Shown here: positions 1 to 54,387 of the stretch, piece by piece
How positions within the stretch are numbered: the stretch's first letter is position 1
How the letters are laid out: the number at the start of each line of letters is the position of its first letter
Assembly: GCA_951406725.2 (NCBI GenBank)
Contig: OX597833.1
Location: forward strand, 52,700,001-52,764,000
Direction: 5' to 3'
Length of the DNA: 64,000 bases
Source of the DNA: Octopus vulgaris
Taxonomy: Eukaryota
Notes under the pieces: model-generated
What the model saw: only the letters and a program-made list of their open reading frames with translations
The model's database searches: none
What the model was told of the DNA's origin: nothing
Program-made: the position numbers and the translations under genes

Positions 1-327
1 ACTGAACGAGTGCGTGCAGAACGGTTTCGTCGCTCTGACCGCATCTCGGGCAGGTCGGCCCCGTGTTTCTCGAGCCGTGTCTGTAGAGCTTATCCCGAAC
101 GGGTAGCGCTTCTCGGTAGCACTGCCAGGCCAGGGATCTCTGGAAGTTGTCCATGGGCCCTGGCCCGAAAGTCGTCCTGAACAGGCGGGTCAGGTACTCC
201 TCGTCGACGTCCAGGTTCGCCCCGAGCTCGTCGTCGTACCTCCCCTCCACTAAACCCCTATAGAATGCTTTGGTTGTGTTGAAGTCACTTAAGGTCGACC
301 CAGGACGGCAGAGTTGCTTGAGAGCAA
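1..327 (-). mobile_element. L1/Tx1-clade LINE, 5'-truncated ORF2 C-terminal fragment (copy 1; continues off the left edge of the window)
   Basis: 326/327 identical by eye to 40540-40866 (only difference at position 7). The minus strand encodes the zf-RVT-like AWQCYREALPVRDKL...CPRCGQSDETVLHALVQ. The 5' truncation abuts a GACA/(GATA)n tract at 328-430. Confidence 0.9.
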
Positions 328-1190: not shown

Positions 1191-1626
1191 AGAAATGCGT
1201 TTGTAATCCAGAATACCTAAAAGAGATAGTAAAGCTCCTGGATCTCCAATATGCAGATTATATTTCATTATATGGAAGACATCAGACGTGTAATTAGCAG
1301 AATTGTAATTAGTGTAATTACAGAATTGCTGTAAAATTCCTTACTATCTTCTAATGGGACATGACGTTGCCGCTAATAGAATAAATAATACAATATAGTA
1401 GAGGGTGTTCAAAACGTCTCACCGCAGTGAATTTTTTTCATCCTGCACATCACCATGGCGCTACTTTAAGTGTTTTGGAGTGAACGGACGATTTCGAAGT
1501 GACTTTGGCCACCCAAAAGCACCTTATTTAACACTGCTAGACATTTGTTTTGTTTTGTTTTTTTTTTCCTGGGAAGCAAGTAAAGGATCAGTGTACAAAA
1601 ATTGCCTGAAAGCCATTAAAAACTTT

Positions 1627-1991
1627 TACTTATTTAATCGACCCCGAAAGGATGAAAAGCAAAGTAGACCCCGGCGGAATTTGAACTCAGAACGTAGCGA
1701 CAGACGAAATACCTCTAAGCCCGGCGCGCTAACGTTTCTGCCAGCTCGCCGCCTTATACCTATTTCTTTATTACCCAAAAGGGGCTAAACACAGAGGGGA
1801 CAACAAGGACAGACATAGGTATTAAGTCGATTACATCGACCCCAGTGCGTAACTGGTACTTAATTTATCGACCCCGAAAGGATGGAAGGCAAAGTCGACC
1901 TCGGCGGAATTTGAACTCACAACGTAACGCAGACGAAATACCGCTAAGCACTTCGCCCGACATGCTAACGTTTCTGCCAGCTCACCGCCTT
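1627..1991 (-). mobile_element. SINE family B, tandem pair
   Basis: Two AAGGCGG(C/T)GAGCTGGCAGAAACGTTAGC heads with GAGTTCAAATTCC B-boxes. The upstream unit ends in tail A (...AAAGAAATA). Confidence 0.85.
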
Positions 1992-3129: not shown

Positions 3130-3282
3130 AGGCTGTGTGGTAAGTAGCTTGCTTACCAACCACATGGTTCCGGGTTCAGTTTCACTGCGTGGAACCTTGG
3201 GCAAGTGTCTTCTTCTATAGCCTCGGGCCAACCAAAGCCTAGTGAGTGGATTTGGAAGACGGAAACTGAAAGAAGGCCGTCG

Positions 3283-3357
<75 letters not shown>

Positions 3358-3587
3358 TTATGTATGTGTGTGTGTTAGTGTGTCTGTGTTTGTCCCCCCA
3401 ACATCGCTTGACAACCGATGCTGGTGTGTTTACGTCCCCGTAACTTAGCGATTCGGTAAAAGAGACTGATAGCATAAGTACTAGGCTTACAAAGAATAAG
3501 TCCTGGGGCCGATTTGCTTGACTAAAGCCGATGCTCCAGCATGGCCACAGACAAATGACTGAAACAAGTAAAAGAGTAAAAAGAGAG
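3130..3587 (+). mobile_element. SINE family A, near full length (tRNA head, CORE-like CCTTGGGCAAGT, internal microsatellite)
   Basis: A-box-like GGCTGTGTGGTAAG and B-box-like GGGTTCAGT. (TAAAAGAG) tail. More than 12 homologous copies in the window. Confidence 0.9.
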
Positions 3588-3847
3588 TAGTGACCATTCG
3601 CTCTTATCAATATCATCGATTATTCTTCATTTATAAGATCGATTACTCTTAATCGAAATCACCTTCGTAATTAGCATTAGCACTACCAACATGTGCTTGA
3701 TTTCCCATCCAGTGTTTCGGTTTCCTTATCGACCTGAGTATTGAACACTTAACACCGAATAGCGAAGCCCAACTGATCCCTTTGATAAAGACCAATTCAG
3801 ATTAATCGGCTTAAACGCCATTGCCGTAATCTCTAATCTTCCAGACA

Positions 3848-5247: not shown

Positions 5248-5679
5248 TAGAAAAGATTACGTTTGATATTTGGATGAGAACGGGTGCAGCGTGCACCATT
5301 AATACTTTAGATACTTAGGCTTTAGTTGTTTTGTTGTTGTGGATTTTGTTGTTGGTGGTGGCGGTTGTTAATATATTTTATGTCCTTTGGTGAGAAGTGC
5401 GAGGTGTTTGTAGAGCTGAACTGATATTTCTATAATTGTATAGAGAAGAGGCGGGTCAATTACCAATTTAGTTAAGCTTAATATCTGAGTGTTTGGTTCG
5501 CAGATTAATTGCTCTTGGATAGCATGCATTCACCCCTGGACAAAGGAATTGGGAGACAAATTTTCAGTTTAAATCATACTATGTGTATGCATATATGTTT
5601 ATATATATGTGTGTGTGTATGTATTTATGTACGTATATATATAAATATATTTATGTGCATGTGTGTATATATATATATA

Positions 5680-6097
5680 TATTTCTTTACTACCCACAAG
5701 GGGCTAAACATAGAGGGGACAAACAAGGACAGACAAAGGGATTAAGTCGATTACATCGACCCCAGTGCGAAACTGGTACTTTATTTATCGACCCTGAAAG
5801 GATGAAAGGCAAAGTCGACCTCGGCGGAAGTTGAACTCAGAACGTAACGTCAGATGAAATACCTATTTCTTTATTACCCACAATGGGCTAAACACAGAGG
5901 GGACAAACAAGGACAGACAAAGGGATTAAGTCGATTACATCGACCCCAGTGCGAAACTGGTACTTTATTTATCGACCCCGAAAGGATGAAAGGCAAAGTC
6001 GACCTCGGCGGAATTTGAACTCAGAACGTAACGTCAGACGAAATACCGCTAAGCATTATCGCCCGGCGCGCAAACGTTTCTGCCAGCTCGCCGCCTT
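5680..6097 (-). mobile_element. SINE family B dimer: full unit plus a 184-bp head-less unit
   Basis: Full unit at 5864-6097. The second unit, 5680-5863, starts at GGTATTTC directly after tail AAAGAAATA. Confidence 0.9.
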
Positions 6098-6357
6098 TTG
6101 TGTGTATATATATATGCATTCATATGTGCGTGTGTATGTGTTTGTGCATGCGTGTGTATGTGTATGTGCATGCGTGTGTACATATATATATATATGCGTG
6201 TGTGTGTGTGTTCATGTGTGTGTATACATATATATATGTATGTATGTGTGTGTGTGTGTGCGTGTGTGTTGTTGTGTGTATCATGCTCGTATATATGTCT
6301 GTATATAGAAAGAAAGATAAAGGGATAGATAGATAGATACAATGACAGGTAGACGGT

Positions 6358-6688: not shown

Positions 6689-7222
6689 CAGCCCTTCCAG
6701 GAAAACCGGCTTTGTGCAGTTTCCGGCGAACAGTTTATGTGAAAACTGGGTTCTCGAGGTGGTCATAATGCTCTGCAGTAATTTTGGACGCTCTACTTTT
6801 GTGATCCTTTCTAACAACTCGCGTAAGAGCCGACGGTCCCTATGTGAAAGTTTTGGTCTTCTTGCAGATTTTTGTTTCGACGTGGAGGTTTTTTTCCTCT
6901 TTCTCAAAGGCTGTCATTACTTTCGAAACAGTACTTCTTGATACACCAAACATTTCGGCTGTTTTTCTTTACGCTAGCGCTTGCCATACGAGCACCAACA
7001 ATTTGACCTCATCGAATGTCCGATAGGTTTGTAATTTTAATGAATTTTAATTATCTTTTTCTGGTGATATCTGAAAAGAAACAGCAATTTTAGCAAAACA
7101 TATTAAGCAACACTAATAATAAATCAAAAACATAAAATAAACAAGCTTTTGACGGTTTTATAGATATTTCAAAATTATGATGCTATCATGCTAGGTGTTT
7201 CCATTATTTTGTCCACCCCCTG
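6689..7222 (-). mobile_element. Tc1-like DNA transposon, 5' half only
   Basis: TIR TA|CAGGGGGTGGACAAAATAATGGAAACACC. Homologous to 20059-20600 and encodes KTSTSKQKSARRPKLSHRDRR. Confidence 0.85.
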
Positions 7223-7278
7223 TATGTATGTCTTTATAAATGTGTTTATGGGTGTATGTATTATGTATGTATATTTTT

Positions 7279-9407: not shown

Positions 9408-9623
9408 TATCAATCTTTTCCTCTTTTTTCTTCCTTTTTTATTTTTATTTTCCTTTTTTTCCTTTTTTTCCTTTTTTTCCCCTTTTACGATCTCTTTTGA
9501 TCGAAAACCTACGCCTCTTCTTTTTGTTTCTCTTGTTTTTTGTTTGTCTTTTTTCATCCCACAAAAGCTCTACCTTGTAATTTGTCCCATCTCTGTGCAG
9601 CCCTGTGTGGCCAATAAAGAAAC
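9408..9623 (+). mobile_element. 3' UTR-only copy of the Tx1-like LINE (copy 3), embedded in (CTAT)n
   Basis: CCTTTTACGATC..TTTTGATCGAAA and AAAAGCTCTACCTTGTAATTTG...GCAGCCCTGTGTGGCCAATAAAGAAAC match the reverse complement of 39800-39990. (CTAT)n lies on both sides. Confidence 0.85.
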
Positions 9624-12463: not shown

Positions 12464-13108
12464 TAGAGAAGGTGATGAAAGGCGTAGGAGTGGCTGTGTG
12501 GTAAGTAGCTTGCTTACCAACCACATGGTTCCGGGTTCAGTCCCACTGCGTGGCACCTTGGGCAAGTGTCTTCTACTATAGCCTTGGGCCAACCAAAGCC
12601 TTGTGAGTGGATTTGGTAGACGGAAACTGAAAGAAGTCCGTTGTATATATGTATACATGTATATGTATGTGTGTGTATATGTTTGTGTGTGTGTTTGTCC
12701 CCCCAGCATCGCTTGACAACCGATGCTGGTGTGTTTACGTTCCCGTCACTTAGCGGTTCGGCAAAAAAGACCGATAGAATAAGTACTAGGCTTCCAAAGA
12801 ATAAGTCCTAGGGTCGATTTGCTCGACTAAAGGCGGTGCTCCAGCATGGCCATAGTCAAATGAATGAAACAAGTAAAAGAGCAAAAGAGAGTAAAAGAGT
12901 AAAGGTTCCTGGTTTTAATGGTATCGTGGTTTTAATGGTATCGTGAGGCCCAAGCTTCCGAGTTTTTTTTTTACAAGGGTTGAAAAACTGAAGGACCGCT
13001 GCTATAAGTGCGTGAATCTGAGAAGGGAATCTGTTGAATAAAGTCATAATTAAGATATTTTCCTGTATTTTCTTTTACCTAAAGCTATAAACTTTTCAGC
13101 ACCTCTCA
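12464..13108. mobile_element. mariner-type MITE interrupted inside its left TIR by a SINE A
   Basis: The degenerate TIR start (TAGAGAAGGTGATGAAA) lies before the SINE and continues after it (AAAGGTTCCTGGTTTTA). The right end is ACTTTTCAGCACCTCTCA|TA. Confidence 0.7.
12481..12901 (+). mobile_element. SINE family A, full length
   Basis: Runs from GGCGTAGGAGTGGCTGTGTGGTAAG to (TAAAAGAG)n. Confidence 0.92.
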
Positions 13109-15244: not shown

Positions 15245-15625
15245 AGAGAGAGAGAAAGCTATTTTTCAAAACGCACGTAAAAATGAAATTTTATTTTCTT
15301 CAACCAAGTCTCTTCGACAGATGCAGAAATTATAGCAAAATTCGCGGAAAGGCGAACGTTCTCACAGAAATTTTTTAATAAAACACGATCTAAAAAATGA
15401 GTACGTTATTTCTTATATAATATCAAATAAACAATATTAAGCGCCATCAATTTGGGGCAATATTATGCAAGAAATTTATATTCCAAGATGACTCCGAGTT
15501 TCGAATACTGGCTATAGATTTTTACTGCTTGCATGAAGCAAATGTTCCTATTTTTACAGTACAGGCCAATGCAAAGAGATGGAAACGTCTATGACTTTTT
15601 CAGGCTTTGTATGGAAGGTAGTATA

Positions 15626-15965
15626 AAGGCGGCAATCTGGCAGAAACGTTAGCGCGCCAGGCGAAATGCGTAGCCGTATTTCGTCTGCCGTTACGTTCTG
15701 AGTTCAAATTCCGCCGAGGTCGACTTTGCCTTTCATCCTTTCGGGGTCGATAAATTAAGTATCAGTTACGCACTGGGGTCGATGTAATCGACTTAATCCG
15801 TTTGTCTGTCCTTGTTTGTCCCCTCTGTGTTTAGCCCCTTGTGGGTAGTAAAGAAATAGAAACGTTAGCACGCCGGAGAAAATGTTATATGGTAATTCTT
15901 CTGGATCTTTACATTGTGGTTTCAAATCCGGCTGAAGTCGGAGTCGATGAAATAAAGCACCAATT
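15626..15965 (+). mobile_element. SINE family B (tail A), full length to about 15858, followed by an older degenerate partial unit
   Basis: Complete head, core and tail. After AAAGAAATA the sequence continues with GAAACGTTAGCACGCCGG of a second unit. Confidence 0.85.
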
Positions 15966-19933: not shown

Positions 19934-20007
19934 GCATATACATACATATATATGTATATATACATACACATATATATATGTATACATATATATATACACA
20001 CACTCAT

Positions 20008-20044
<37 letters not shown>

Positions 20045-20058
20045 CACACACACATACA

Positions 20059-21325
20059 TAGAGGGGTTGGACAAAATAATGAAAACACCTAGCATCATAG
20101 CATCATAATTTTGAAATATTTATTAATCAGTCAAAAACTTGTTTATTTTTTATGTATTTTGATTTATTATTAGTGTTGCTTAATATGTTTTGCTAAAATT
20201 GTTATTTCTTTTCAGATATCATCAGAAAAAGGTAATTAAAATTCATTAAAATTACAGATCTATCGGACTTTCATGGAGGTCAAATTGTTCGCAGCTCGTG
20301 TGGCAAGCACTAGCGTAACGAAAACAGCCGAAAAGTTTGGTGTATCAAGAAGTACTGTATCGAAAGTAATGACAGCCTTTGAGAGAGAGGGAAAAACCTC
20401 CTTGTCGAAACAAAAATCCGCAAGAAAATCAAAACTTTCAGATAGGGACCGTCGGATTCTTACGCGAATTGTTAGAAAGGATCACAAAAGTACAGCTCCC
20501 AAAATTACTGCAGAGGTTAATGACCACCTCGAGAAACCAGTTTCCACTAAAAATTTTCACCGGGAATTGCACAAATCTACTTTTCACGGTAGGGCTGCTT
20601 TCAGATAACCACTACTTTCAAGAACAAACGCTGCAAAGTGTTTAGATAGGTGTAAAAACCTATAGAATTTGGTTCCTGGAGCAGTAGAAGAATGTTATTT
20701 TCTCGGACGAGTCGTCCTTCACCTTATTTCCGACCACCAGTCGAGTATACGTGTGGAGACAGCCAAAAGAGGTATTTGACCCAGACTGCTTTCGTCCAAC
20801 GGTTAAACAATGGATGATCAGTGATGATCTGTGGGCTGGGCTATATCTTGGAAATCCGCCAGCCCAATGGTTTCCGTTCACAGCAGAGTTAAAAGTTAAG
20901 ACTGTTTAAGCATTTTATCTGATCAAATTCCTATGGTTGCAGAACTGTTTCCGGAGAGAAACGCAATATTTCAGGATGATAATGCACCAATTCACAGAGC
21001 TACTGAATGGCGCGAGGAACATTCTAATTAAGTTGAACATCTTATCTGGCCACCCCAGTCGCCAGATCTCAACATTATTGAACATTTATGGTGCATTTTA
21101 GAAAAACAAGCAAGGAGTCGATATCCTCTGCCATCATCACTACAAGAATTGGAGACTTTTCAGCTGAAGAATTGACAAAAATTCTTTTGGAAACAATTCA
21201 AACTTTGTACGAGTTCATACCTCGTAGAATTCACGGTGTAATTACTGCCAAAGGCGGCCCTGAACCATATTAAAGTTAATTCGTTTGAAATTTAAAGGTG
21301 CTTCCATTATTTTGCCCAACCTCTG
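20059..21325 (+). mobile_element. Full-length Tc1-like (DD34E) DNA transposon with a decayed transposase
   Basis: About 29-bp TIRs (AGAGGGGTTGGACAAAATAATGAAAACACC / GGTGCTTCCATTATTTTGCCCAACCTCTG|TA). Frameshifted segments encode the paired-like HTH (SVTKTAEKFGVSRSTVSKVM), VIFSDES, IFQDDNAPIH, WPPQSPDLNIIEHLW and IPRRI..VITAKGG. Confidence 0.95.
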
Positions 21326-21400
<75 letters not shown>

Positions 21401-21440
21401 ATGTATGTATGTATGTATGTATGTATGTATGTATGTATGT

Positions 21441-21766
21441 ACTTATTTAATCGACCCCAAAAGGATGAAAGGCAAAGTCGACCTAGGCGGGATTTGAACT
21501 CAGAACATAGCGGCAGACAAAATATCTATTTCTATTTCTTTACTACCCACAAGGGGCTAAACACAGAGAGGACAAACAAGGACAGACAAACGGATTAAGT
21601 CGATTATATCGACCCCAGTGCGTAACTGGTACTTAATTTATCGACCCCGAAAGGATGAAAGGCAAAGTCGACCTCGACGGAATTTGAACTCAGAACGTAA
21701 CGGCAGACGAAATACAGCTACGCATTTCGCCCGACGTGCTACCGTTTCTGCTAGCTCGCCGCCTTA
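21441..21766 (-). mobile_element. SINE family B: full unit plus a partial head-less unit
   Basis: The minus-strand junction AAAGAAATAGAAATA|GATATTTTGTCTGCC is equivalent to the GGTATTTCGTC junction. Confidence 0.85.
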
Positions 21767-27554: not shown

Positions 27555-27875
27555 TTTCAAATTTTGGCCACAAGGGCGGCAATGTCAGGGAAAGATGTAA
27601 ATCCATTATTTCGATCCCAGTTCTCAACTGGTACTTATTTTATCAACCCCAAAATAATGAAAGGTAAAATCAATGTCCTTCTTTATGTTCTGAGTTCAAA
27701 TTCCGCCGAGGTTGACTTTACCTTACATCTTTCCGGGGTCGATGAAGTAATTATCGGTTGAGCACTAGGATCGATCTGAGCCACTTACACCCCCTCACCC
27801 CTGAAACGGCTAGCCTTATGCCCAAATTTGAAACCGACATTTTTGTTTGCTAAGGCGGCGAGCTGGCAGAATCGT
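27555..27875. mobile_element. Cluster of old SINE B fragments in both orientations
   Basis: Minus-strand tail and core at 27555-27675, plus-strand core and tail at 27680-27840, and a head at 27852. Confidence 0.6.
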
Positions 27876-37654: not shown

Positions 37655-38077
37655 AAGGCGGCGAGCTGGCAGAAACATTAGCACACCGGGCGAAATGATG
37701 CGGTCTTTACGTTCTGAATTCAAATTCCGCTGAGGTTGACTTTGCCTTTCATCCTTTTGGGGTCGATAAATTTAGTACTAGTTGCGTACTAGGGTCGATC
37801 TAATCGACTGGCCTCCTCCCACAAAATTTTGGGTCTTGTACCTATAGTAGAAAAGAATACAAGGAGGCGAGCTGGCAGAAACGTTAGCACGCCGGGCGAA
37901 GTGCGTAGCAGTATTTCGTCTGCCGTTACGTTCTGAGTTCTAATTCCACCGAGGTCAACTTTCCCTTTCATTCTTTCGGGGTCGATTAAATAAGAACCAG
38001 TTACGCACTGGAGTCGATATAATCGACTTAATCCTTTTGTTTGTCCTTGTTTGTCCTCTCTATGTTTAGCCCCTTGT
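37655..38077 (+). mobile_element. Two adjacent SINE B copies: tail-B unit (37655-37857), then tail-A unit (37861-38077)
   Basis: Same head and core, with different 3' segments after the GTCGAT-N4-TCGACT hairpin. Confidence 0.85.
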
Positions 38078-39799: not shown

Positions 39800-41080
39800 G
39801 TTTCTTTATTAGCCACACAGGGCTGCACACAGATAGAACAAATTACAAGGTAGAGCTTTTCTTTTGAAGGTTTAAGAAAAAAAAAAAAAAAAAGGAAGGG
39901 GGAGTTTCGATCAAAAGGGATCGTAAAAGGAGAGAAAGAGGACAAAAAAAGGGGGGTTTAAAAAAAGGGGGGAGGAAAAAAATTGATCAATAGGGATCGT
40001 TATCACAGAAATGTCAATATGAAGTGTAAAGGGGAGGACAGGTGAGGTTTACCCGTGCAAAGAAAAGCCTACGGAAAAGACCACGGTAACCTCGGTCAAT
40101 GATGTCACATTTTATATTTCTTTTTTTTTTTTTTTTTGCAAATAAGCAACTCTCTGTTTTCGATTTCTGGGTTCATAGGACTATGCTCAAGGTGGCTTCG
40201 TCATTCATACGTGCCATTCTTGCTACATTCACCCATCTTTTTTAAAACATTCGCTAGACAAAACTTGCCTCTCTACTCTCACTTTCCTTTTCAAGTGGTA
40301 CTTGAAGAAGTTGATGGGAGATTGACCAGAGAGGAAAGTGTTTGTCTCCAATCCTTTCAGACGCGTCCACCAGATACATTCTTTCGCCATAGCCACAAGG
40401 ATGATGAAAATAGCTCTTCCTTCCCGTTTGAAGGAAGGAGGCGTGACAATATTGACGATAGACTCAGCTGATAAGCCGACTCGTCCCACACGTGACAGCA
40501 GTTGTTCGACATAAGCCCACAGGTCGGAAATTGTTGGACACTGAATGAGTGCGTGCAGAACGGTTTCGTCGCTCTGACCGCATCTCGGGCAGGTCGGCCC
40601 CGTGTTTCTCGAGCCGTGTCTGTAGAGCTTATCCCGAACGGGTAGCGCTTCTCGGTAGCACTGCCAGGCCAGGGATCTCTGGAAGTTGTCCATGGGCCCT
40701 GGCCCGAAAGTCGTCCTGAACAGGCGGGTCAGGTACTCCTCGTCGACGTCCAGGTTCGCCCCGAGCTCGTCGTCGTACCTCCCCTCCACTAAACCCCTAT
40801 AGAATGCTTTGGTTGTGTTGAAGTCACTTAAGGTCGACCCAGGACGGCAGAGTTGCTTGAGAGCAACGCGACACTCGCGGTGCCATTCGCCCTTCCTCGG
40901 CCTCTTTTTGATCCACGACTGCAGTTCGGTCATGGAGACGAGCTGCGGGAAAGCGTGCCTCACAAACGGCGACCACACCTGTTCACCGTCGTCTACATAG
41001 AGCCAGAGATGCCGCAGTCTCAGCGCGTGTCTGCGCATCATCAACCACGGCATGCCCAGCCCTCCTTTTAACGGGTGTTT
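39800..41080 (-). mobile_element. L1/Tx1-clade LINE, 5'-truncated (copy 2, about 1.28 kb), embedded in (GATA)n
   Basis: ORF2 C-terminus, pyrimidine-rich 3' UTR and terminal AATAAAGAAAC. (GATA/GACA)n lies at 39686-39788 and 41088-41443. Confidence 0.92.
40229..41080 (-). pseudogene. LINE ORF2 C-terminal region (post-RT part with zf-RVT-like CCHC finger), 5'-truncated
   Basis: Open from the truncation point: HPLKGGLGMP (P..GGLG.P motif of L1/Tx1), AWQCYREALPVRDKL and CPRCGQSDETVLHALIQC (CX2CX8HX4C). A 1-bp slip in an A-run near 40240 cuts off RWVNVARMAR... Confidence 0.88.
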
Positions 41081-45648: not shown

Positions 45649-46232
45649 AAGGCGGCCAGCTGGCAGATACGTTTGCACGCCGGGCGAAATGCTTAGCGAT
45701 ATTTAGTCTGCTGTTACGCTCTGAGTTCAAATTCCGCCGAGGTCGACTTTGCCTTTCATCCTTTCGGGGTCGATTAAATAAGTACCAGTTACGCACTGGA
45801 GTCGATATACTCGACTGAATCCGTTTGTCTGTCCTTGTTTTTCCCCTCTGTATTTAGCCCCTTGTGGGTAGTAAAGAAATAGGTATTTCGTCTGCCGCTA
45901 TGTTCTGAGTTCAAATTCCGCCGAGGTCGACTTTGCCTTTCATCCTTTCGGAGTCGATTAAATAAGTACCAGTTACGCGCTGGGGTCGATATACTCGACT
46001 GAATCCGTGTGTCTGTCCTTGTTTGTCCCCTCTGTGTTTAGCCCCTTGTGGGTAGTAAAGAAATAGGTATTTCGTCTGCCGTTACGTTCTGAGTTCAAAT
46101 TCTGCTGAGGTCGACTTTGCCTTTCATCCTTTCGAAGTCGATAAATTAAGTACCAGTTGCATACTGGGTCGATCTAATCGACTGACTCCCTCCCCCAAAA
46201 TTTCCGGCCTTGTGCCTAGAGTAGAAAAGAAT
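45649..46232 (+). mobile_element. SINE family B trimer: full unit, 184-bp head-less unit, head-less tail-B unit
   Basis: Junctions AAAGAAATA|GGTATTTCGTCTGCC at 45882 and 46066. Confidence 0.92.
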
Positions 46233-49878: not shown

Positions 49879-49944
49879 AAACAATAACAAACAAGCAAAT
49901 TGTTAAGGGTCTGTATCGGCAACTTATTATTATTTCTCTTCAAG

Positions 49945-50448
49945 ACATTATTATGTCTCCTCAAAGACATACATCATCTCGAAAGAGTCCAGAAGCTGGC
50001 TACCCGTATGGTTCTTGGTCTCAAGCATTTGTTTTATGAAGAAAGGCTGAAGACACTCGACCTTTATTCTCTAGAAAAACGACGACGCCGTGATGATCTC
50101 GTTCTTGCTCACAACATCATAAGCGGAAAGTGTAACCTCTCAAAAGAGTTGTTTATCACTCCTGCTCCAGAGTGGCGGCTTCGGGGTCACTCCGAAAAGC
50201 TCTATCTGCGACGATTTCATCTCAATCGAAGGAGTGGGGCTTTCTCCGTCCGGGTTGCGGATCCGTGGAATAAGCTGCCGGACGAGATAGTGAAGATGCC
50301 GACGATCGCTCGGTTCAAAGTCTCCCTTGACCAGAAATGGCCTGAACTCTTTGCATGAATACCACCCTGTACATAACTCCATGTCCCCCTACATGGCCTT
50401 GCTTTTTGCTTTTTGAGCCAAAAAATTAACTTAACTTAACTCAACTAT
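49945..50448 (+). mobile_element. CR1/L2-group LINE 3' end, 5'-truncated, with a (TAACT)n tail
   Basis: Encodes KDIHHLERVQKLATRMVLGLKHLFYEERLKTLDLYSLEKRRRRDDL...LRGHSEKL...FSVRVADPWNKLP..FK (canonical CR1 ORF2 C-terminus), with a stop at 50358. A short 3' UTR ends in TTAACTTAACTTAAC. Confidence 0.92.
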
Positions 50449-53134: not shown

Positions 53135-53799
53135 AGTGAGAGAGAAGGAATTAATGTTTGTCAGGGTAAATTTAGGATGATACGTGCCTTACTTTGTTAA
53201 TTTATTTATACATTGATTACAAGTGTTCCCCCAACGACTTCTCATAGTACCAAAATATCACGCACAGACGCGCGCATGCGCATACAGGCATCATTTTGGA
53301 GTAAGGTGGCGAGCAAAATGCTTAATAACTTTTCGTTAATCCTTACGTTCTTAGTTTAAATTCCGCAGAGGTCGACTTTGCCTTTCATCCATTTGGGGGT
53401 CGATATAATAAGTACTAATCGAGCACTGGGGTCGATGCAGTTCAACAGGCCTCACAACGAGGCACTCAAACAGTTGCTGATCCCTTGCAAGGTTCAAGTG
53501 AAACCCATAATTAAATACTGGCCGCTTAAATGCAACGGTGCCTTTTATATATATATATACACATCCTTGAGCACTTCCAAAAGAAAGCAATCTGATGTAC
53601 TGATGTGGGTGTCAGCAACCACTATACCCTAACTTCTAAATGTACCGTAAACTAATCAAAGGGCCTTCATGCGGATGCTCGACCTGCAAAGAGTACCTCC
53701 TAAATCTCCCTAAACTAACACGTTATCTTGAAAATTAAAGGACCAGCGCTCATGTCAGTATATATGTTAAAAGTCATATCCTATATCCTCTTTTATATT

Positions 53800-54105
53800 C
53801 TTTTCTAGTTTAGGCACAAGGTCTGAAATTTTAGGTAAGGGGACCAGTCGATTAGATCGACCCCAGTACGCAAAGATGAAAGGCAAAGTCGACCACGGTG
53901 GAATTTGAACTCAGAATGTAAAACAGACAGACGAAATACCAATTTCTTTACTGCCCACAAGGGGTTACACACAGAGGGGACAAACAAGGACAGACAAACG
54001 GATTGAGTCGATTATATCGACCCTAGTGCATAACTTGTACTTATTTAATCGCCCCCGAAAGGATGAAAGTCAAAGTCGACCTCGGCGGATTTTGAACTCA
54101 GAACT
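53800..54105 (-). mobile_element. SINE B: tail-A unit followed by a head-less tail-B unit
   Basis: Minus-strand junction AAAGAAATT|GGTATTTCGTCTG at 53940/53941. Confidence 0.8.
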
Positions 54106-54142
54106 TTACCTATGCTTATTTGTAGCAAATAAGTATAGGTAA

Positions 54143-54387
54143 AGTTACATTCCGAATCATGCCGACTCATAAGGGCCGGTTTCCCTGTTTCCATGCGTAT
54201 AAATTATCCACCTGGAGGGGACGCCGCTCCATCGCAGGATTACTCATTTTTGCCGGGTGAGTGGACTGGAGCGACGCGAAATGAAGTGTTTTGCTCAAGA
54301 ACACAACGCGTCGCATGGTCCGGAATCGAAACCGCAATCTTACGATCATGAGTCCAACACCCTAACAACGAAGCCACGCGGCCCCAC
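54143..54387 (-). mobile_element. SINE family D
   Basis: Reverse complement of 30842-31070. Confidence 0.8.

Follow-up and report, generated by a model that had tools for sequence, protein, structure and literature searches.

The array at positions 45649–46232 raises the question of why the complete tail of one SINE is followed directly by a head-less copy of the same family, and why that second copy begins at one particular base. A preliminary description had proposed four answers, namely site-specific insertion of the SINE into its own family, template jumping by the reverse transcriptase, rolling-circle copying of a circular RNA, and a multimeric source copy. We examined these in the 64-kb window, the whole stretch of DNA analysed here, and in public sequencing runs.

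Querying the window with the array returned about 17 loci of one SINE family. The monomer is 234 bp long and consists of a 50-bp head and a common body followed by either tail A, which terminates in AAAGAAATAG, or tail B. We take TGGCAGATACGTT in the head to be an A-box-like motif and GAGTTCAAATTC in unit a1 of the array to be a B-box-like motif; tRNA gene calling and Rfam, the two methods applied, gave no tRNA match. With 234 bp, about 17 loci per 64 kb and 100,000–540,000 contigs aligned per contig run, the family falls within the SINEBase definition of an interspersed element of <1 kb with at least 100 copies; the accessible part of that source further lists at least 60% tRNA identity over 60 nt, a LINE-derived 3' region, a target-site duplication and Pol III transcription (PMC3531059). 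Octopus SINEs carry the names OK/OR1/OR2 and Twitch (PMC4824008, PMC4758252), and no published consensus of any of them was found in the paper supplements searched. The copies and arrays that bear on the question are as follows.

45649–45698, plus strand: SINE head of the 45.6-kb array (+1 to +50), comprising the 5' arm and apex of the head hairpin and the A-box-like motif (from sequence and RNA fold)
45699–45882, plus strand: unit a1, 184 bp, tail A, with the B-box-like motif
45883–46066, plus strand: unit a2, 184 bp, head-less, tail A
46067–46232, plus strand: unit a3, head-less, tail B, the putative rest of the host copy
5680–6097, minus strand: array b, with head 6097–6047 and units 6046–5863 and 5862–5680, both with tail A
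6099–6115, minus strand: 5' copy of the 17-bp target-site duplication of array b, of low complexity, a 17-mer present nine times in the window
5660–5676, minus strand: 3' copy of the 17-bp target-site duplication of array b
21439–21765, minus strand: array c, with head 21765–21716, near-consensus unit 21715–21532 and an extra AAATAG at 21531–21526
21525–21439, minus strand: downstream part of array c, a more diverged unit cut by an (ATAC)n tract
53796–54104, minus strand: array d, a 5'-cut tail-A unit (54104–53940) joined to an older-type tail-B unit (53939–53796)
1621–1991, minus strand: tail-A copy before a full head, TAGGTAT on either side, a different junction
15626–15960, plus strand: near-consensus tail-A monomer (15626–15859) that runs into a strongly diverged copy at about position +19, a different junction
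37655–38077, plus strand: tail-B monomer, immediately after which comes a tail-A copy that has a full head but a cut tail

Target-site duplications comprised the 17 bp flanking the whole of array b and 7 bp at the 1.9-kb copy, and none was convincing at the other 9 of the 11 loci examined. The 45.6-kb array has the 6-mer AATGAG close to either end, 12 nt away from it, and this was rejected as a duplication. The head of array d is cut off by a palindrome of about 46 bp at 54105–54150, possibly a small DNA-transposon remnant.

Eight intact SINE tail-A ends are present in the window, a count that leaves out two LINE ends and one unrelated match also returned by the scan. Five of the eight are followed by GTATTTCGTC, at position +51 of a second family copy; the self-family junction is confirmed as real and recurrent. 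The places given for it in the preliminary description held at 45882/3 and 46066/7 on the plus strand and at 5863/2, 53940/39 and about 21526 on the minus strand. Its list of tail-A joints was incomplete, omitting the remaining three ends: 1760, where TAGGTAT and a full head follow, 15859, which enters an old copy at about +19, and 5680, which meets a TA tract. Seven of the eight ends thus continue into some family copy. Under a rough uniform model in which 16 sites were assumed, the binomial probability of five of eight ends at one site is about 1e-14, and a chance origin of the clustering at +51 is excluded. The 17-mer AAAGAAATAGGTATTTC spans three of the five junctions exactly and four with at most one mismatch; the 21.5-kb junction differs by the additional AAATAG and a G>A change. 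We also confirmed the unit length of 184 bp (45699–45882, 45883–46066, 6046–5863 and 21715–21532) and the termination of two arrays in tail B. Since 184 bp is simply the 234-bp monomer minus the 50 bases upstream of the target, the unit length provides no evidence for a 184-nt RNA.

The entry point lies within a strong structure. The first 95 nt of the SINE fold as one RNA rod of −42.2 kcal/mol (z −4.6 against 200 shuffles), with +51 just 3' of its apex loop; the head hairpin noted earlier therefore exists, but extends further than had been described. The corresponding DNA folds at about −20 in a young copy and less regularly in two other copies.

To look beyond the window we aligned 4 of the 24 listed public sequencing runs to the monomer at 15600–15872, at 85% likeness: X3 (organism B), X10 (organism A, RNA by guess only), X12 (organism E) and X22, which consists of raw reads. 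Word shares were small in runs X18–X21, which were left out. Among the 15 joints listed, of at least 605, every tail-end joint returned to +51..+53 or +66..+71, under three organism labels. The list contained no joint to +19 or to the beginning of the head, and the +19-type flank had a depth of about 1% of that at the tail end. On the joints listed, and counting contigs, which are not equivalent to loci, the tail end continued at +51..+53 in 281 of 402 contigs of X3, 97 of 118 of X10 and 13 of 31 of X12, and at +66..+71 in 103, 21 and 1, respectively. The letters between the two sides at the listed tail-end joints were substitutions that preserved junction length. The joints at +66..+71 are probably the same junction entering older copies, because alignment to older-type copies resumes there and the loose-end consensus of those copies departs from the reference just before +66. 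Consistent with these counts, 549 loose-ended contigs of X10 that start at +51 were preceded by the tail-A consensus (agreement 0.66), and 180 that end at the tail went on as GTATTTCGTC (agreement 0.67). Tail-end depth relative to peak depth was 14–16% in X10 and X3 and 3% in X12, so tail A is scarcer in the latter. In X22, which shares its species label with the best-matching run, only 19 of 12.9 million reads aligned, despite the abundance of the repeat, and one carried the junction. Overall, the junction is recurrent across related organisms.

A tail-B copy followed by a family copy, as at 37655–38077, occurs once in the window, and the corresponding joint (15793 to 15691) was present in 14 contigs of X3 and 8 of X12. 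The tail-A pattern had no match in viral, metagenome or prokaryote contigs, and the SINE core pattern none in viral contigs and two in metagenome contigs, one by chance and one a related element. The latter, at 450–669 of metagenome contig L002, combines this core, GTCGACTTTGCCTTTCATCCTTTCG, with another head that is tRNA-like, which suggests a conserved SINE domain common to another animal.

The units that follow the junction are of several kinds. Downstream of it we found a young tail B (46067), an older-type tail B whose older-type bases start within about 13 nt of the junction (53939), a tail A (5862) and a unit of another subfamily (21525). At 21.5 kb, the single locus at which we tested for age asymmetry, the upstream unit carried 2 changes in 180 sites compared to 9 in 133 for head and downstream unit together (Fisher p 0.010; p 0.015 for the downstream unit alone), leaving out four subfamily columns and two polymorphic head columns. 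At p about 0.01, these differences point to a near-pristine unit inside an older host copy. Bases 1 and 7 of the downstream unit still carry changes of its own, which locates the break at +51. The 15.8-kb locus joins a near-consensus unit to a copy that is about 30% diverged.

Within arrays, units a1 and a2 share four non-CpG variants and b1 and b2 share five. The preliminary description had regarded such variants as private to their arrays, and in the window this applies to two at 45.7–46.1 kb and three at 5.7–6.0 kb; AAAGGGATT, on the other hand, is widespread, accounting for 27–61% of summed contig depth (15800 G>C) and being common to the 1.9-kb copy. Unit a2 shares four changes with a1 and one with a3. 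Divergence within arrays (11/184 and 6/184) overlapped the between-copy range of 4–21. In addition, each tail-A pair differs at one common variant (15691 T>C for one and 15827 G>A for the other, each at least 26% of depth), which suggests, with the little weight that single bases can bear, that a1/a2 and b1/b2 are mosaics rather than clones.

Relatives of a LINE that may recognize tail A are present in the window itself.

39801–41080, minus strand: 5'-truncated L1/Tx1-type LINE in a (TATC)n tract, its 3' end homologous to tail A (from alignment and Pfam)
41080–40232, minus strand: C-terminus of the LINE ORF2, with zf-RVT
9463–9622, plus strand: 3'-terminal piece of a related LINE, within a (TATC)n tract
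1–327, minus strand: LINE fragment, 99.7% identical to 40540–40866, adjoining a (TATC)n tract

Tail A and the LINE 3' end agree at 38 of 47 positions, and none of 1,000 shuffles scored as well. Tail B showed no match to the LINE 3' end (290 and 64 of 1,000 shuffles were as good), and no partner for tail B was found. Besides the SINEs, two other elements in the window end in tail-A-like sequence. The LINE at 41080–39801 retains a 283-residue open frame carrying zf-RVT. Its protein is 61% identical to one from Argonauta hians and has a short match, at 83%, to one from Octopus bimaculoides, which points to an octopod as the likely host; it gave no loci in viral or prokaryote contigs. Full-length relatives combine a PF03372 endonuclease, a PF00078 reverse transcriptase and a PF13966 zf-RVT, with 41–44% identity to P0004, and their closest solved structure in the PDB is L1 ORF2p. 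The presence of APE, RT and zinc finger in these relatives assigns the LINE, as judged by homology, to the L1/Tx1 group; no named Tx1 reference was among the matches returned, and membership of the Tx1 clade itself is what we infer. A Dong/R4 partner for tail A was considered and dropped, the LINE being of the APE type. All three LINE copies in the window, admittedly a small sample, adjoin (TATC)n, a preference for repeats as in Tx1, for which microsatellite and transposon targeting is typical according to the accessible part of PMC4494074. These copies, about 80% like tail A and located in (TATC)n rather than in SINE heads, appear to be relatives of the putative SINE partner. The near identity of 1–327 and 40540–40866 indicates recent activity of the family, unless the region is duplicated in the assembly.

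On balance, and with confidence somewhat better than even, we favour insertion into existing copies at +51, driven by a LINE and with in-register joining of the 5' end, after which read-through and recombination add units. Site-specific insertion into the own family is the best supported of the four initial proposals because the units that follow the junction vary in their tail, subfamily and age and because tail A matches a microsatellite-associated L1/Tx1-type LINE. A multimeric source probably contributes, but does not by itself explain the mixed downstream units, and neither template jumping nor a circle gained positive support. Starting from what we observed directly, namely the recurrent junction, the mixed downstream units, the homology between tail and LINE and the hairpin around the site, we infer the following course of nicking, priming and annealing. 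The LINE protein would bind tail A and nick the bottom strand at +51, where an imperfect inverted repeat has its centre and an NTAT motif follows that is like the one in the simple repeats also used by the LINE. Reverse transcription would begin at the tail end (...GAAAUAG) and, in a target of the same family, the cDNA would anneal in register to the host top strand. The product would consist of the host head, a 184-bp unit and the remainder of the host, with the newcomer's own head lost; owing to the in-register 5' joint, a 234-nt element would take on the appearance of a head-less 184-bp unit. Read-through transcripts, repeated hits and unequal recombination could then generate further units with the same junction, and Pol III would be expected to read through the arrays because the consensus unit is free of any run of four T. 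The shared variants within arrays are not predicted by independent insertions of unrelated elements, so that extra steps such as read-through multimers, long conversion tracts or unequal crossover would be needed. Two further findings count against self-insertion: the length of the junction hardly varies, which inheritance from a master would predict, and at array b the duplication encloses the dimer as a whole.

The same findings argue for the most serious rival, in which the junction originated on one or a few occasions, after which multimeric source genes were copied whole and recombination with other copies swapped the last unit. We regard this as possible, although unlikely as the full account. 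Along with the invariant junction length and the 17-bp duplication around the whole b dimer, the within-array shared variants and the missing T4 terminator are in keeping with it, and dimeric SINEs are common (PMC10702118, PMC3531059; accessible parts). It is difficult to reconcile with downstream units of at least three types, with the age asymmetry at 21.5 kb, and with the older-type bases so close to the junction at 53939, which leave too little room for a crossover. The in-family junctions at 1760 and 15859 likewise show independent insertion beside or into copies.

More doubtful still is a self-homing variant of the insertion reading, in which, after a first copy has settled at +51, a read-through RNA carries the target sequence of its own family behind the tail, pairs with nicked copies wherever they lie in the genome and primes there, the 5' end being resolved by homology. 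If it were true, the element would guide itself and also serve as its own landing pad, with a large proportion of the young copies accumulating in old ones.

Non-LTR polymerases run off their templates and jump to others, and a reverse transcriptase that left one RNA at the hairpin apex, through a pause or a cut RNA, and moved to the 3' end of another SINE RNA could build an array in one event. R2 template jumping is mentioned in the accessible part of PMC2718515. The entry next to the apex of a strong RNA rod and the retention of the head in the first unit only are both what such a jump would give. We nonetheless consider it improbable: a single event implies units of equal age, yet at 21.5 kb and 15.8 kb a young unit lies upstream of an old one, and arrays that end in tail B would have to be started by a second LINE system that then jumped to tail A. 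Moreover, the junction palindrome, put forward earlier as a site at which the RNA 3' end could pair, is weak as RNA (−1.4 kcal/mol), and it renders the cDNA end identical, not complementary, to the incoming RNA end.

We consider it very unlikely that a circular RNA of 184 nt, in which the tail end is linked to +51, was reverse transcribed in rolling-circle fashion. In its favour are the precise junction, the constant unit length and the shared variants within arrays. The junction does occur in contigs of the presumed RNA run X10, but equally in DNA runs. CTGANGA, which we take to be the hammerhead core motif, is absent from both strands in all seven loci, as the preliminary description had maintained, and Rfam returned no ribozyme and no match of note on the SINE unit; for the whole window, the 150 of 403 Rfam matches listed held microsatellite-driven miRNA below threshold. 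By motif scan and Rfam alike, the hammerhead in each unit that characterizes retrozymes is missing. The 184-nt unit folds no better than shuffles, whether linear (z +0.2) or circular (z +0.7). A circle also conflicts with the full head in 3 of 3 arrays with an intact 5' end, with the limit of three units per array in the window, with the tail B that ends two arrays and would be missing from the circle, and with the common variant site at which the units of both multi-A arrays differ.

Pure DNA tandem duplication within single copies, by slippage or unequal crossover as for SINE-derived satellites, would account for the shared variants, with four changes common to a2 and a1 and one common to a2 and a3, and is known in reptiles and bivalves (PMC10702118, PMC11481361; accessible parts), but we give it scarcely any credence, since there is almost no microhomology between tail end and +50, a single copy cannot yield tail A upstream of tail B, the units flanking the junction belong to different subfamilies at three loci, and one junction across many contigs is left unaccounted for.

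We then compared the favoured insertion at +51 to known systems, as far as the accessible parts of the sources describe them. The Alu self-insertion hotspot at position 133 is a single base with 15,759 sense events and 15–16 bp between nicks; like Alu, the octopus SINE would enter its own family in sense at one base. Alu relies on its A-rich linker with poly(A) pairing, and the newly inserted copy can be recognized as nested (PMC2836564), whereas the octopus site lies in the head hairpin and is not A-rich, and the new head is missing. The crocodilian SINEU-3 offers a parallel to the proposed mechanism in being mobilized by a target-preferring Tx1 LINE, Tx1-Mar, with a 16-bp duplication and tandem copies attributed to sequential insertion; its target is a Mariner DNA transposon and not the SINE itself, and its tandem copies are separated by the duplication (PMC4494074). 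In another mollusc, Scapharca broughtonii, multimers of the form TSD-(SINE)n-TSD likewise start with a full head, there of tRNA type, and continue with units cut at the same head position. There, the internal units lack the tail end as well, arrays reach 4–15 units and unequal recombination has been suggested (PMC11481361), while in the octopus arrays the tail is complete and the host units are mixed. Squamate SINE-derived satellites likewise consist of tandem units from part of a SINE with a longer terminal unit, but are long, homogenized and subtelomeric (PMC10702118), whereas the octopus arrays are short and dispersed, with two or three units; at no more than three units per array in the window, they fall short of the four or more homogenized middle monomers of such satellites. 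Non-LTR retrozymes share the short tandem units of fixed length, whereas the octopus SINE has no hammerhead core, a putative tRNA-type head, a LINE-derived tail and an association with L1/Tx1, not Penelope (bioRxiv 10.64898/2026.07.22.740005). For the 5' joint, R1 and R2 provide a precedent in that annealing of the cDNA to the target gives precise 5' junctions, although both are autonomous elements of rDNA while the octopus SINE is non-autonomous and its target is its own body (PMC2718515). We found no description of the octopus junction in the literature searched, with Repbase, subscription papers and the 1994 octopus SINE paper outside our reach, and the +51 junction may already be known to repeat curators. 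What is new here is the homology between tail A and the 3' terminus of an L1/Tx1-type LINE whose copies in the window lie in (TATC)n tracts.

SINEs make up 11.6% of the O. vulgaris assembly (PMC13282606, in the part available). If insertion at +51 is correct, a very abundant octopod SINE would avoid new sites, inserting instead at a single base of its own dead copies. Repeat annotators would score the products as truncations or tandem duplications, which would bias copy counts and age profiles. The arrays would also mark a route from SINEs to satellites, and would provide a naturally occurring example of an L1/Tx1-type enzyme that inserts a non-autonomous RNA in a site-directed manner with the help of homology.

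Several further features of the window were recorded. At 27569–27792, two old SINE copies (27671, 27683) lie back to back in opposite orientation. The frame at 49888–50355 is free of stops and has no Pfam match; we take it to resemble the C-terminus of a CR1/L2-type LINE. Two Tc1-like transposase remnants (6689–7272 and 20006–20597; HTH_Tnp_Tc3_2 below cut-off) are 86% alike. Finally, another abundant repeat, about 420 bp long and with a simple repeat in its interior, occurs at 881–1161, 3131–3589 and 12480–12900 and at about ten more places.
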